This document shows, in pieces, positions 3,986 through 51,969 of a stretch of 64,000 nt of DNA; position 1 is the stretch's first letter, and the number at the start of each line of letters is the position of its first letter. The translations under genes were made by a program, and so were the position numbers. The notes under the pieces were generated by a model, which saw nothing but the letters and a program-made list of their open reading frames with translations, was not told the DNA's origin and did no database searches. This stretch comes from an uncultured Elusimicrobia bacterium (GTDB lineage Bacteria; Elusimicrobiota; Elusimicrobia; Elusimicrobiales; UBA9959). The stretch is taken from NCBI GenBank assembly GCA_903879915.1, contig CAIRNJ010000091.1:95718-159717 (forward strand), given 5' to 3'.

Positions 3986-4106
3986 ATAAGATATTCTAGT
4001 ATCCTCCGCTTGCCCGTTCCCTGAGGCTAAAAGCCCCGGCGGTCCTGTTTTCCGGCCCAGGAGCGGCGGCTTCACATAAATGGTTTTTTATAAACCCCGG
4101 GTTTAA
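3986..4106 (-). promoter_or_regulatory. Type-1 upstream cassette, copy A (lacZ-galT); most divergent copy
   Basis: Palindrome P0 at 4090..4106, core CCCAGGAGCGGCGGCTT at 4056..4073, and CCTGAGG at 4020..4026 (+ strand spelling). The middle linker is 29 nt instead of 30 and the next is 21 instead of 20. The -10-like hexamer is TAGAAT (3998..3993), 7 nt before the ATG. Confidence 0.6.
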
Positions 4107-4419
4107 CTGCCGTCCGCTGTCATTTGAGCCGGAGGCTTAAAGAGGGAATAGGCGGTCGGAATATCGGGAGAGCGCGCAATGTCCGTTAAACTTCCGCATA
4201 CGCATGGTGCTTTTGTCTTGAGGCAACGGTGAAAATAGGCCTTTTAGTCCTGCGAGATATTCTCTTTATGCTCAGGTGCTCCGCTTTATCCCGCCCCGCT
4301 GTCCCGATAGCCTAACGTTAGCTAAAGCACTGACCCGATTATTGCTAAAATAGCAAGGAATAAGCTTGCGATAGCAGCCCTTATGTTCATTACAGCTCAT
4401 CAGCCCCACGGAGGGAACC

Positions 4420-5928
4420 ATGGAAAATAAATTCGAAGAACTTCGTAAACGCTGCGAGGAGATGGCCGCCTTGGGGTCGGCCGGAGCGCTGCTGGGCTGG
4501 GACCAGAACGTCTATATGCCGCCCAAGGGCGCGCAAGCCCGTGGCAGAACGCTGGCGGTGATAAGCGAGCTGGCCCATCACAAGCTTACCTGCAGGGAGA
4601 CCGGGACGCTCATAGCGGACCTTTACGACTGGGCCCAGGCCAAGGGATACGACAGTTTCGAGGCGGCTTTCCTGCGCGCCATAAAGCGCGACTACGACCA
4701 GGAGGTCAAGATCCCGGCCGAACTGGTAAAAGAGCTCTCCCTGGCCACCACGGCCTCTTTCGAAGCCTGGCATAAGGCCAGGAAGGCTTCCGACTTCGCC
4801 ATGTTCGCCCCGCACCTGGAGAAGGTGGCGGAGCTGAACCTGCGCAAGGCGGAAGCGCTGGGCTACGATAAGTCGCCTTACGACGCGCTGCTGGACCTTT
4901 ACGACGCCGGCATGCGCCGCGAGAAGCTGGACGGCATTTTCGCCGAGCTGGCCGCCGGCCTGACGCCCGTGATAAAGGCCATAAACGAAAGGGCGGACAA
5001 AGTTTCAAGCGCCCCGTTCAAGGGCGATTTCGCCCCCGCCGCGCAGCTCGGCCTCGCCCTGGAGATAGCCAGGGCGCTGGGCTATGACCTCGAGGCCGGC
5101 CGCCAGGACCTGGCCGCGCACCCGTTCTCCAGCGGCATACTTTCGCCCGACGACGTGCGCATAACCACGCGCACGCAGGCCGACTGGCTCCCGGCCTGCG
5201 TCTACGCCTCCATCCACGAGACCGGCCACGCCCTCTACGAGCAGGGCTTCCCCGGTGAATTCGCGTTCACCCCGCTGGCCTCGGCCGCCTCCCTGGGCGT
5301 GCACGAATCGCAGTCGCGCTTCTGGGAGAACCTGATAGGCCGCAGCCGGCCTTTCGCTGCCTGGGCGCTGCCGCTGTACCGCAAGCATTTCCCCGGCAAG
5401 TTCGACAGCCTCACGCCCGAGGACATCTACCGCGCGGCCAACCGGTCAGAGGCCTCGCTGATACGCGTGGAAGCGGATGAAGTCACCTACAACCTGCATA
5501 TAGCGCTGCGCTACGAGATAGAAACGCAGCTGCTGGACCGCAGCCTGAAGATAAAGGACGCGCCGGAGCTCTGGAACGCGAAGATGAAGGAGTATTTCGG
5601 CATAACTCCCTCCAACGACGCCGAAGGCATACTGCAGGACGTGCACTGGGGCTACGGCATGATAGGCTATTTCCCGTCCTATACCATCGGCAACCTGATC
5701 TCTGCCCAGCTTTACGCCGCTATCCGCAAGGACCTGCCCGGCATGGACGCCATGATAGAGAAGGGGGAGTTCGCGCCGCTGCTGGCCTGGCTCAGGCGGA
5801 AGGTGCACGCGCAGGGGCGGAAGTACCAGCCCGAAGAGCTGCTGGACCGCGCTGCGGGGCAGAAGCTCAGCGTGAAGCCTTTCGTGGAGTACATAAGAAC
5901 GAAGTACTCCGCGCTGTACGGCTTTTGA
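4420..5928 (+). CDS. M32 family carboxypeptidase (Taq-type metallocarboxypeptidase)
   Basis: HETGHALYEQG (HExxH), HESQSRFWEN, IRVEADEVTYNLHI and DVHWGYG are all M32 signatures. A GGAGGG Shine-Dalgarno sits just upstream of the ATG. Confidence 0.88.
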   Translation: MENKFEELRKRCEEMAALGSAGALLGWDQNVYMPPKGAQARGRTLAVISELAHHKLTCRETGTLIADLYDWAQAKGYDSFEAAFLRAIKRDYDQEVKIPAELVKELSLATTASFEAWHKARKASDFAMFAPHLEKVAELNLRKAEALGYDKSPYDALLDLYDAGMRREKLDGIFAELAAGLTPVIKAINERADKVSSAPFKGDFAPAAQLGLALEIARALGYDLEAGRQDLAAHPFSSGILSPDDVRITTRTQADWLPACVYASIHETGHALYEQGFPGEFAFTPLASAASLGVHESQSRFWENLIGRSRPFAAWALPLYRKHFPGKFDSLTPEDIYRAANRSEASLIRVEADEVTYNLHIALRYEIETQLLDRSLKIKDAPELWNAKMKEYFGITPSNDAEGILQDVHWGYGMIGYFPSYTIGNLISAQLYAAIRKDLPGMDAMIEKGEFAPLLAWLRRKVHAQGRKYQPEELLDRAAGQKLSVKPFVEYIRTKYSALYGF

Positions 5929-5940
5929 GCGTCCTCCGAG

Positions 5941-6504
5941 TTATATGCGCCCTTCGCACGCGGCTTTGGCGGCTTTCCTCAGGCAGGTCACTATTACCAG
6001 CGGCGTTAAAATAACGCCCGCGATAAATCCTAGCAGCCCGAAGAGACCTCCGCGCAATCTGGCGGCGCCATAGCTGTGTTCCGCGTATTTGCCGCGCGAG
6101 CCTAAAAAATAGCCTGCCAGCGCCATCGAGATCGGGGTCATCACGATCGCGATAGGGGCAAGAATAATGCTCTCCACCGCCCTGGCGCGCTTGTGGCTGG
6201 AGATAGGCGCTACATGGGGGGGAGGTACCTGGGCCGCCAGGGAGACCCGCCGTGCGGCGGATACGGCCGCGGCCTGGTCTAAGACAGGGTCCGGGAAAGA
6301 GCCGAGCCTCACGGCCGGCGCCTGCGCCGCCCCGTCCAGGGTTCTGGCGGAAAAAAGCCTGGCGGCTTCAGGCGTGCCGGCTTCGGCGGCCGCGGACAAC
6401 TCCGCGGCCAGCTCGAGCGAAGCGCGCGAGGTCTGGGCGGACGCCCCGGCACCGGTCAGGGACAGAAGGATAAGCAGCGCTCCCGCCGTTAAGTGTTTGT
6501 TCAT
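5941..6504 (-). CDS. Hypothetical membrane-anchored exported protein
   Basis: Signal peptide MNKHLTAGALLILLSLTGAGASA, an Ala-rich linker and hydrophobic C-terminal helices. It has a 4-nt ATGA overlap with the upstream lipase-like gene. Confidence 0.55.
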   Translation of the reverse strand: MNKHLTAGALLILLSLTGAGASAQTSRASLELAAELSAAAEAGTPEAARLFSARTLDGAAQAPAVRLGSFPDPVLDQAAAVSAARRVSLAAQVPPPHVAPISSHKRARAVESIILAPIAIVMTPISMALAGYFLGSRGKYAEHSYGAARLRGGLFGLLGFIAGVILTPLVIVTCLRKAAKAACEGRI

Positions 6505-50842: not shown

Positions 50843-50876
50843 AGAACGGGACCGGCGCAAGAGCCGGTCCCGTTCT
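50843..50876 (-). terminator. Terminator between convergent genes (best U-tract on the minus strand)
   Basis: AGAACGGGACCGGC-gcaaga-GCCGGTCCCGTTCT is a perfect 14-bp stem. The minus strand continues TTTTATGAA. Confidence 0.6.
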
Positions 50877-50895
50877 TCTGTGCCCGCTTCCGCGG

Positions 50896-51765
50896 TCAGT
50901 CCTTGGGGAGCAGCTGGAAGATGCCGGCGTCGACCATATAGATGGCTGACGCCTGCCTGTTCTCTCCGGAGTCGGCGTAGATGGCGGCCAGCTCCACGAA
51001 TTTATCCATGTGCTGGCGGTAGATATCCAGGTTGGCCCTCGACATACGGATGGTTATCCGTCTCGTATCCACCCGGCCGGCTTTCTTCATCCACTTCTCC
51101 AGGTGTCCCAGCAACGCGGCCTTCACCGGGGCGGTAGCCGGCGTCGCGGGCAGCAGCTCCACTACTTTCGCCGCGTATTCGGAGCGCGTTTTATCATTGG
51201 TAAACTCAGCTATGCCCTGGGCCGCGAACGTTCTGAGGGTTTTCCTTATCAGGTCGGGTTTGAAGCCCGTGGCGTTGGATAATTCGCGCACCGTTACCCA
51301 GCCCGTGGTGTTGAACAGATAATACTGGCAGAGGAACGACACCATGTCGCGGGCGCATACTTTCCATTGTTCCAGCGTAAGATTGGCGGTGCGCTGCGCG
51401 AGCGCTTTTTGTGTCGCGGCTTCCGCCAGCTCCCTGCTGGGGAGGTCCTCGTCCGCGGCGCCGGCTGCCGCCGGGGCGGACAGGGAATCGAGCAGTTCGT
51501 CCGAGCCCGACAGCGCTTTGAAATAGGCCCGGATCAGCTCCTGGCCCCGGGGGGAATCCTGTTCCACGCCCAGCGCGGCTATTATCGCTTTCAGGCGCCA
51601 GCTCCTGGGCAATTTCTTCCCGTGCTCCGTGTTCCAGTAGGTCATCAGGCTGAAGCCCAGGCTTTTTTTCCCGCCTACGCTGTTATAGAACTGGTGCGCG
51701 CTGGAGAAGCCCAGCTCTTTCCTTATCCTGGCCAGTACGCTGCCGAAAGCTTTTGAATTATTCAT
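50896..51765 (-). CDS. Putative HTH/winged-helix transcription regulator, paralog R4
   Basis: MNNSKAFGSVLARIRKELGFSSAHQFYNSVGG... and WVTVRELSNATGFKPDLIRKTLRTFAAQGI are present. Its start codon is 21 nt from palindrome P0 of divergent cassette L. Confidence 0.6.
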   Translation of the reverse strand: MNNSKAFGSVLARIRKELGFSSAHQFYNSVGGKKSLGFSLMTYWNTEHGKKLPRSWRLKAIIAALGVEQDSPRGQELIRAYFKALSGSDELLDSLSAPAAAGAADEDLPSRELAEAATQKALAQRTANLTLEQWKVCARDMVSFLCQYYLFNTTGWVTVRELSNATGFKPDLIRKTLRTFAAQGIAEFTNDKTRSEYAAKVVELLPATPATAPVKAALLGHLEKWMKKAGRVDTRRITIRMSRANLDIYRQHMDKFVELAAIYADSGENRQASAIYMVDAGIFQLLPKD

Positions 51766-51785
51766 TCGGCAATTATAACAAATAG

Positions 51786-51969
51786 TTAAACCACGGGTTT
51801 AGGAAAATGCGTTATCCCTAAGCCGCCGCTCCTGGGCCGTAATACGGGGCGGCGCTGGTTCCGCGGCCTCATGTGGCCGGTCCGCCAACGGAGTAAACTA
51901 TAGTAAGAAGTTTTGAAAGCCGCGCGGCCGGACAGCCGGAGCGGAACATAAATAAGGAGAGCAACTAAC
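51786..51969 (+). promoter_or_regulatory. Type-1 upstream cassette, copy L (the only plus-strand copy)
   Basis: P0 at 51786..51802 (TTAAACC-ACG-GGTTTAG), core TAAGCCGCCGCTCCTGGG at 51819..51836, CCTCATG at 51867..51873 and AGTAAACT at 51892..51899. Linkers are 16/30/18 nt and the leader is 70 nt. Confidence 0.75.

Follow-up and report, generated by a model that had tools for sequence, protein, structure and literature searches.

Upstream regions common to many genes are known from the Borrelia upstream homology box and the Mycoplasma vsp/vlp promoters, which are promoter cassettes placed before families of genes for surface or secreted proteins. Regulators with a palindromic operator over the -35 region of their own gene are represented by the C proteins of restriction-modification systems (C.BclI, C.PvuII), the transcripts of C.PvuII being leaderless, and the divergently encoded LysR-type regulators occupy ~50-60 bp with a recognition site and an activation site. 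Next to nothing is known of how transcription is controlled in Elusimicrobia, a phylum of which very few members have been cultured. Here a cassette of ~114 bp is described that occurs in twelve full copies in a stretch of 64,000 nucleotides (the window, with positions counted from its first letter) from an uncultured Elusimicrobia bacterium (contig CAIRNJ010000091.1, positions 95,718 to 159,717). Read on the strand of the downstream gene, the order of its blocks is the same in 12/12 copies: the palindrome P0 (consensus TTAAGCC-N3-GGCTTAA), an A/T-rich linker, the core TAAGCCGCCGCTCCTGGG, a GC-rich linker, GCCTCAGG, another linker, GGTAAACT and a variable leader. The cassette is real, robust and apparently undescribed, and is most likely a promoter plus operator of a known general sort and not a new class of element. 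The reading that we consider probable, with some reserve, is that of a regulon-wide, activator-dependent promoter of one Elusimicrobia lineage in which P0 would serve as the shared operator.

The cassette recalls several described systems in part, but none of those compared fits as a family. As in the C proteins, the regulator encoded beside the cassette has an N-terminal fold of the C.BclI/XRE type, and its putative palindromic operator overlaps the -35 region of its own, apparently leaderless, gene. Unlike the C proteins, this regulator has 286 aa, with a MarR-like winged helix and a C-terminal domain in addition, its operator heads a 114-bp cassette before dozens of operons, and no restriction-modification genes are involved. 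A regulator divergent from its target, a dyad over its own promoter and further fixed-spaced sites toward the target's -35 region are traits of the LysR type, from which the present case departs in having no LysR fold or Pfam match, a conserved region about twice as long (114 bp) and a dyad near -112 instead of -65. Activator-dependent sigma-70 promoters of class I and class II, with CRP/FNR-like sites at -41.5 and -72.5, resemble the cassette in their good -10, their lack of a -35 and their blocks, which in the cassette are centred near -42 and -74 as counted from the presumptive start; here, however, the blocks are not dyads of 16-22 bp, there is a third site at -112 and the spacing stays constant for more than 100 bp, an unusual promoter architecture for bacteria. 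The palindrome at ~110 bp from the start and the conserved sequence that separates the two are reminiscent of sigma-54 enhancer-dependent promoters, whose activator site lies 100-150 bp off, but the -24/-12 element GG-N10-GC is absent and the linked regulator has no AAA+ domain. Finally, the Borrelia and Mycoplasma cassettes share with this one a common upstream region before many exported-protein genes and signal peptides that are partly common. There, recent duplication has made the upstream region homologous along its whole length, whereas here only discrete blocks are kept, the linkers are randomised, and unrelated enzymes are encoded behind the cassette as well, among them a beta-galactosidase without an N-terminal signal-like segment. 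In agreement with the original prediction, which had been made from the letters of the window, no described element with this layout was found in Rfam or in the searchable literature; for the regulator family as well, full-text literature searches gave no description.

The twelve copies, here called A to L, are found where they had been predicted. A hidden Markov model (HMM) built from 42 copies returns exactly these twelve in the window, with P0 ending at 4107, 7693, 22716, 25141, 28174, 33828, 38442, 41655, 45424, 46448, 49288 and 51785, at most 1 nt away from the boundaries first given. The 16-nt core AGCCGNNNCTCCTGGG has twelve window matches at 0-3 mismatches, 8/12 of them exact, and its eight matches outside cassettes all show exactly 3 mismatches, which is the chance level (at most 3 mismatches in shuffles: mean 2.5, largest 6). 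The spacing from P0 to the core is identical in all twelve, as had been claimed, and the lacZ copy A has indeed a second linker 1 base shorter and a third linker 1 base longer. Because this loss of 1 nt is offset by the gain, the register is kept and the TAnAnT hexamer lies exactly 73 nt from the core start in every copy, A included. The second linker, from GGG to GCCTCAGG, was counted as 29 nt (28 in A) against the 30 and 29 reported before, a matter of boundary convention and not of disagreement. One detail had to be corrected: GGTAAACT, said to be in every copy, is absent as such in A and F, which read TAGAAT and TAAAAT, respectively, in the same register.

Outside the window, a pattern scan of one genome per species detected the cassette only in Elusimicrobia genome bins, together with one chance match in Rubrobacter, and a metagenome scan contributed 29 more stretches that carry it. 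As anticipated for a promoter, the copies found in related bins stand in gene orientation ahead of open reading frames (ORFs) with their spacing kept. The window, the Elusimicrobia genomes, the metagenomes and the loci fetched via the linked protein together yielded 87 unique copies, and spacing and base conservation were measured in the 80 with the highest scores. In these, the distance from P0 to CTCCTG is 43 nt in 79/80, and the distances from CTCCTG to GCCTC (37 nt) and to TAAACT (65 nt) are each kept in 75/80. The linker sequences have diverged almost completely between copies while the blocks are conserved; consequently, the copies must be old, with blocks and spacing held by selection. 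Orthologous copies are also kept at the same loci across genomes, K corresponding to L007, J to L018 and L to L045 (L followed by a number denotes material from relatives), and the H type being present in every genome. To judge from these scans, the cassette is lineage-specific and belongs to one lineage of Elusimicrobia.

Several features point to a promoter at the gene-proximal end. The hexamer reads TA[AG]A[ACT]T in 80/80 copies, T at -12, A at -11 and T at -7 being invariant, and TAAACT resembles the host's own -10 boxes (TATAAT, TATACT). Of the copies, 85% have a purine 7 nt past the hexamer, at the presumptive +1, and 70% a pyrimidine directly before that base. A divergent gene begins with its ATG ~21 nt from P0 in 23 copies, and the promoter must then be inside the cassette. 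Promoters elsewhere in the host are canonical sigma-70 ones, such as TTGACA-N17-TATAAT, TTGCTA-N17-TATAAT and, at the transfer-messenger RNA (tmRNA) gene, TGnTATAAT in the form TGGTATAAT. In the cassette no hexamer near TTGACA is found 16-18 bp upstream of the -10, where the consensus is A(G/T)GnAA, and a simple sigma-70 scan returned no promoter in any cassette of 38200-52100. The block that occupies -40 to -35 is GCCTCA, near-invariant with 72-78/80 at each position. TAAACT is probably a sigma-70-type -10 box held in fixed register and not accompanied by a -35 box.

The same features have to be weighed for a promoter of an alternative sigma factor, in which GCCTCAGG (-40 to -33) would act as the -35 and GGTAAACT as the -10, with P0 and the core as extra regulatory sites or with P0 alone as an operator. 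The almost invariant GCCTCA at a fixed 22-23 bp from TAAACT speaks for it, as does the lack of a TTGACA-like -35 in the cassette when the host's other promoters carry one; moreover, three half copies described below retain exactly the pair of GCCTC and hexamer. Nevertheless, TAAACT, TAGAAT and TAAAAT suit the housekeeping -10 consensus, and we know of no -10 of the extracytoplasmic function (ECF) type that fits them. Neither the window nor the loci examined show a sigma factor gene linked to the cassettes, whose linked gene is that of a two-domain regulator, and the reading does not account for the fact that the core, 30 bp further upstream, is more strongly conserved. We regard this alternative as rather unlikely. 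In particular, a sigma-54 promoter was rejected, since the GG-N10-GC pattern is conserved nowhere in the cassette: no conserved GC occurs 10 nt past either conserved GG, and information content there is low.

Exactly 7 nt lie between TAGAAT and the lacZ ATG at copy A, with no Shine-Dalgarno sequence (3985-3998, minus strand), and the lacZ-like mRNA thus placed appears to be leaderless, as those of the regulator genes do. The longest lacZ ORF call, from a GTG at 4075, would cross the cassette and is probably wrong. In E, H and K the presumptive transcript start (~28053, 41534 and 49167, minus strand) coincides with GTG AGG TTT TGA, a mini-ORF of three codons; in about half of all copies the +1 would fall on ATG or GTG, and in many on AAG, so a leader peptide is not conserved.

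At the other end of the cassette, the base pairs of P0 indicate a dyad kept symmetric by selection, and its position ties it to regulator genes. At mirrored position 3 the pairs are A-T in 68 copies, T-A in 8 and C-T in 4, a degree of symmetry reached in 0/2000 shuffles. At position 5 they are G-C in 60, A-T in 7, A.C in 6 and G.T in 7, and the asymmetric forms show no strand bias. An RNA hairpin formed by the gene strand would admit G.U and not A.C; that A.C is about as frequent as G.T points to double-stranded DNA read by a symmetric protein. The candidate for such a protein is encoded next door. In 23 copies one layout recurs, consisting of an ATG, 6-7 nt (mostly 6), TATACT or TATAAT, 7-10 nt (mostly 9) and P0, and it holds in relatives at 48-54% protein identity whose cassettes are much diverged. 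By tblastn, a homolog starts, divergently, ~21 nt from P0 of the H-orthologous copy in eight other genomes. With their ATG 6-7 nt past the -10 box, the regulator genes look leaderless, and P0 would cover ~-38 to -22 of their promoters, that is, their own -35 region. A dyad that overlaps the regulator's own promoter and is conserved in this position across genomes is what is expected of an operator, and P0 is probably the binding site of the regulator encoded beside the cassette. Furthermore, a residue in the predicted recognition helix tracks P0 position 3, the combinations being V with T (6/6) and M with A (13/14); this co-variation, which on the tree comprises about two coupled changes and one exception, is suggestive of binding but not decisive. 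The comparison of P0 variants between paralogs has few cases behind it.

Four paralogs of this ~286-aa regulator are present in the window. Two are arranged in tandem on the plus strand, one of 286 aa at 41850-42710, with an XRE-like helix-turn-helix N-terminal domain and a central MarR/ArsR-like winged helix and with sub-threshold Pfam matches, and one of 293 aa at 42723-43604. The third (289 aa, 50896-51765, minus strand) displays the leaderless layout beside copy L: its ATG at 51765 is followed by 6 nt, TATAAT (51772-51777 on the plus strand), 8 nt and the P0 of L. The fourth is a distant paralog of 278 aa with 23% identity (29314-30150, minus strand), which has weak DUF4423 and ArsR matches and a TTGCTA-N17-TATAAT promoter. 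All Pfam matches of the family (MarR/ArsR-type winged helices, DUF4423) are sub-threshold; for DUF4423 (PF14394) the cut-off is 30 bits and two of the four paralogs score 17-21, and no match to NCBIfam TIGR02147 was obtained, a distant kinship with DUF4423/TIGR02147 being possible. In an AlphaFold2 model of the 286-aa paralog, with a mean predicted local distance difference test (pLDDT) score of 82, Foldseek recognised an N-terminal domain like XRE/C.BclI (TM-score ~0.7 on the target) and a central MarR-like winged helix, and returned no match to the full length among solved structures. All 102 of the 102 homologs with a source name come from Elusimicrobia, where they are annotated as hypothetical.

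At copy H the divergent regulator gene, present in all relatives, has been deleted here. A remnant persists at 41664-41687 (plus strand), composed of TATACT (41664-41669), 6 nt and ATGAAAACTTAA with its ATG at 41676, and 170 nt of non-coding sequence follow before the next paralog (41664-41849). The close relative L018 has an intact gene at the H locus and three tandem paralogs there. The conserved TCATGCC.CCAGTATA beside H was also considered as the promoter of a non-coding RNA, for instance signal recognition particle RNA, and was rejected because Rfam was empty there and tblastn identified it as the start of the regulator gene.

The protein-DNA architecture put forward in the original prediction was favoured by every computational test able to overturn it (RNA structure, P0 asymmetry, coding and position). 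The main rival at the RNA level is a transcribed 5' leader, beginning at the core or comprising the whole cassette, that would be riboswitch-like, bind a protein or carry a processing signal, with P0 as an RNA hairpin. Copies D, G, H, I and K can in fact pair CCUGGGYCRRA with UUCGGCC-UCAGG in a helix of ~11 bp, and the consensus of these arms is 72% complementary, compared with 27-51% for slid controls. In DNA terms this is a second, imperfect dyad (CCTGGGYCRAAnAA against TTCTTCGGCC-TCAGG), which folds in some copies; it shows no compensatory change, pair 63/88 being A.C in 30 copies and G-C in 29. Tandem arrays in which a cassette lies 0-14 nt past an upstream stop codon also lend the leader some support, as read-through transcripts would include it. 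Against this, no compensatory change was seen outside P0, and RNAalifold, run on 12 and 42 copies, both strands and sub-regions, gave no structure except the P0 hairpin. A mutual-information scan of all column pairs found no covariation in the linkers, its top pair, 129/135, apparently reflecting copies with TAAACTATAG that are out of register by 1 nt. Compared with shuffles, the 12 copies have folding z-scores from -1.7 to +1.7 with a mean of ~0, and Rfam gave no cassette match at gathering scores (only the tmRNA) nor at E up to 10 over 38200-52100. The asymmetric P0 variants do not prefer G.U over A.C; in the 23 copies with a divergent start codon 21 nt from P0 there is no room for an upstream promoter; and the half copies, which lack P0 and the core, keep the same distance to the gene. 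A leader RNA is therefore quite improbable, and structured RNA has no support from Rfam, RNAalifold, mutual information, folding against shuffles or the test of the second dyad. On the present comparisons, the cassette works as double-stranded DNA and not as RNA.

Other candidates were discarded on similar grounds. Hairpins picked by eye in the third linker and past the hexamer (AAACUU/AGGUUU) failed the column-wise test. P0 is unlikely to be an intrinsic terminator, given that no T-run follows the stem while the host's real terminators are canonical. A hidden coding region was ruled out, no frame on either strand being open through the cassette in more than 15/42 copies.

A mobile or recombination element, whether a repeat like miniature inverted-repeat transposable elements (MITE) or repetitive extragenic palindromes (REP), an integron attC-like site or a target for shuffling of promoters and genes, is suggested at first sight by the many copies, 11/12 of those in the window being on one strand between unrelated genes in what superficially looks like a cassette array. 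The GTTAAGC and GCTTAAC of P0 agree with the attC boxes GTTRRRY and RYYYAAC, and the regions downstream of the cassettes, signal peptides included, look recombined between genes. This explanation is very hard to sustain. No terminal inverted repeats or target duplications accompany the cassette, its only dyad is the 17 bp at the 5' end, and conservation resides in the central blocks and not at the ends, unlike an attC site. The copies do not vary in orientation or in their distance to the downstream start codon, the near-random linkers between conserved blocks mark old copies under selection and not a recent spread, orthologous copies occupy the same loci in different genomes, and no integrase or transposase was found among the ~50 window ORFs scanned against Pfam. 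The claim that this is a protein-DNA architecture and not a mobile repeat agrees with the fixed orientation and gene distance, the conservation of orthologous positions and the absence of terminal repeats.

For the activator-dependent promoter with P0 as shared operator, the following mechanism can be proposed. A dimer of the regulator would bind P0, autoregulating its own gene and controlling every cassette. Further protein contacts, at TAAGCC-GCCGCTCCTGGG (~-87 to -70) and at CTGGTTCTTCG-GCCTCAGG (~-51 to -33), would replace -35 recognition and recruit RNA polymerase; they could be made by the second DNA-binding domain of the regulator, by further subunits at TAAGCC-like half-sites or by another partner. 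The fixed lengths of the linkers would keep these contacts in register, and transcription would start at the purine 7 nt past TAAACT, giving a message with the 5' end R-(U/A)-GAGGUUU. The TAAGCC half-site of P0 recurs at the core start, and the related GGCCTCA (TGAGGCC on the other strand) is found in the proximal block; owing to this recurrence of TAAGCC-like sites, the same protein may contact all blocks, which would explain why the linker lengths are invariant. A stronger version of this idea, possible but doubtful, is that the cassette is a docking platform for a fixed-geometry nucleoprotein complex of ~110 bp, in which a regulator oligomer on P0, the TAAGCC-like half-sites and GCCTCAGG would replace the -35 recognition of sigma. 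If true, it would represent a bacterial promoter class with enhanceosome-like rigidity that governs much of the secreted-protein repertoire of the lineage.

A number of points weigh against the activator-dependent promoter. The centre of P0 is ~112 bp away from the proposed start, on its upstream side, which is a long way for a simple activator and requires looping or a long multi-protein complex to be assumed. The missing -35 box, which accounts for the empty sigma-70 scan, makes an alternative sigma factor equally compatible with the sequence. Copies C, G, I and J lie 0-14 nt past an upstream stop codon with no terminator in between, and read-through transcripts must therefore contain the cassette. 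The regulator-operator co-variation amounts to few independent events, with one exception (L018). The activator at the cassette promoter is something we infer, the transcription start and the binding of proteins are deduced from sequence, and the roles given to the core and to GCCTCAGG are guesses.

Eleven of the individual copies lie on the minus strand. Copy A (3986-4106) precedes the gene of a GH2 beta-galactosidase (lacZ-like), with its ATG at 3985, and is made up of a P0 of the TTAAACC variant (4106-4090), the core (4073-4056), GCCTCAGG (4027-4020) and the -10-like TAGAAT (3998-3993). Copy B (7506-7693), before a 334-aa protein without Pfam match, has a TTAAAC-N5-GTTTAA variant of P0 (7693-7677), the core at 7660-7643, GCCTCATG at 7613-7606 and TAAATT at 7585-7580. 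Copies C and D head paralogous genes. C (22533-22715; P0 22715-22699, core 22682-22665, GCCTCAGG 22635-22628, TAAACT 22607-22602) lies before a 728-aa secreted protein, with P0 14 nt past the stop codon of the upstream gene (22730), and D (24959-25140; P0 25140-25124, core 25107-25090, GCCTCAGG 25060-25053, TAAACT 25032-25027) before its 742-aa paralog. An FGE-sulfatase-domain protein follows E (27994-28173), in which P0 occupies 28173-28157, the core 28140-28123, GCCTCAGG 28093-28086 and TAAACT 28065-28060. The divergent copy F (33667-33827), before a 371-aa secreted protein, combines P0 at 33827-33811 with the core form AGCCGTTCCTCCTGGG at 33794-33777, GCCTCTAT at 33747-33740 and TAAAAT at 33719-33714. 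In G (38259-38441; P0 38441-38425, core 38408-38391, GCCTCAGG 38361-38354, TAAACT 38333-38328), which precedes a 768-aa protein, P0 begins 11 nt past the upstream stop codon (38453). The most consensus-like copy of the window is H (41480-41654), before a 419-aa secreted protein, with P0 at 41654-41638, the core at 41621-41604, GCCTCAGG at 41574-41567 and TAAACT at 41546-41541. Copy I (45273-45423; P0 45423-45407, core 45390-45373, GCCTCAGG 45343-45336, TAAACT 45315-45310) is placed before a 196-aa secreted protein, and J (46293-46447; P0 46447-46431, core 46414-46397, TCCTCAGG 46367-46360, TAAACT 46339-46334) before a 68-aa ORF (46086-46292) followed by a 216-aa secreted protein. Downstream of K (49111-49287; P0 49287-49271, core 49254-49237, GCCTCAGG 49207-49200, TAAACT 49179-49174) comes a 306-aa secreted protein, with a CE4 deacetylase in the same operon. 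On the plus strand, L (51786-51969) precedes another FGE-sulfatase-domain protein and is divergent from the regulator gene 50896-51765; its P0 is of the TTAAACC variant (51786-51802), and the core (51819-51836), GCCTCATG (51866-51873) and TAAACT (51894-51899) follow.

As the original prediction had it, every copy points to its downstream ORF, and none was found in the wrong orientation or at a random position. A start codon of an ORF of at least 60 aa in the same orientation lies downstream in 71/81 copies, mostly 34-117 nt past the hexamer and with a Shine-Dalgarno sequence ahead; the remaining copies without a called start are mostly at contig ends or are cases of weak Shine-Dalgarno sequences. 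Between ~18.6 and 55.7 kb of the window, the cassette stands at the head of every operon and never within one. Cassettes C, G and J begin 11-14 nt past the upstream stop codon with no terminator between, and at I the TAA stop of gene 45420-46070 is itself formed by bases 2-4 of P0 (45422-45420). The downstream genes had been called functionally unrelated. The domains recognisable in them by Pfam include GH2 beta-galactosidase, FGE-sulfatase, PLD, CE4 and subtilase. Most of the genes encode proteins with signal peptides, several of which are near-identical, so the genes are less unrelated than was stated; the beta-galactosidase behind A has no N-terminal signal-like segment. A near-identical signal peptide, MKKIMMLAVMLGLTGGAYAAE..., is common to otherwise different proteins encoded behind E and I and in L001, L003, L010, L017, L024 and L025, and a second group of proteins behind cassettes has MKRSLYAAAAVLFGANVSYAG... 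in common. These common signal peptides suggest that cassette and gene 5' end may have been duplicated or recombined together.

In the distant relative L027, the operon behind a cassette with P0 at 5955 comprises genes 4879-5775, 4098-4802, 3400-3969 and beyond; the one at 4098-4802 (minus strand) encodes an ADP-ribosyltransferase exotoxin-domain protein (PF03496), and a gene for a clostripain-like C11 peptidase lies on the other side of the regulator. Together with the secreted proteases, PLD and FGE-domain proteins of the window, this operon hints at a regulon for secreted effectors or degradative enzymes. The cassette offers a ready map of that regulon, each gene behind a copy being a member, and supplies a candidate regulator family with a predicted operator, a defined DNA-protein pair whose biochemistry needs no culture of the organism. 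It could also serve to mark operon starts in Elusimicrobia genome bins and to interpret clusters of secreted proteins with no assigned function.

Some neighbouring features deserve mention. Divergent from K, the segment 49603-50718 (plus strand) encodes a stand-alone receiver-domain protein and a 221-aa unknown protein, and has its own canonical promoter, TTGACA-N17-TACAAT, at 49411-49439. The tmRNA gene is located at 8756-9107 (plus strand; Rfam RF00023, 135.7 bits), with the extended -10 promoter TGGTATAAT ahead. Another palindrome, ACTTAATTG-N4-CAATTAAGT, is also repeated, with longer arms GTGACACAGAACTTAATTG... around it. It occurs at 28194-28215, ~20 nt upstream of the P0 of cassette E, and at 30248-30269, where ~60 nt separate it from the promoter, further downstream, of the distant regulator paralog (29314-30150); none would be expected by chance, and it is also found in L037 just upstream of a cassette. 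It could be the operator of the distant paralog, or a terminator.

Besides the full copies, the window contains three degenerate half copies, all of them without P0 and CTCCTGGG, that retain only GCCTC-N23-TARACT yet still precede genes. The first (29169-29243, minus strand) keeps CGAATAAC ... GCCTCA ... GTAAACTT and lies before a 280-aa secreted protein with its ATG at 29131. In the second (55881-55961, plus strand), which is devoid of P0 and GCCGCTCCTGGG, TAAGCC is fused directly to AAAAAAC and is followed by GCCTC-N23-TAGACTTATATTAAGAAGTT. The third (63256-63335, plus strand) is paralogous to the second, reads TAAGAC ... GCCTCTTA ... GTAGAAT and stands before a 169-aa ORF at 63399. Past the second half copy, a short ORF at 55999-56100 starts with MPKVLITHDF, which resembles the MTKILITLVL of the real gene (56198) located 100 nt further on, and looks like the relic of a duplicated gene start.

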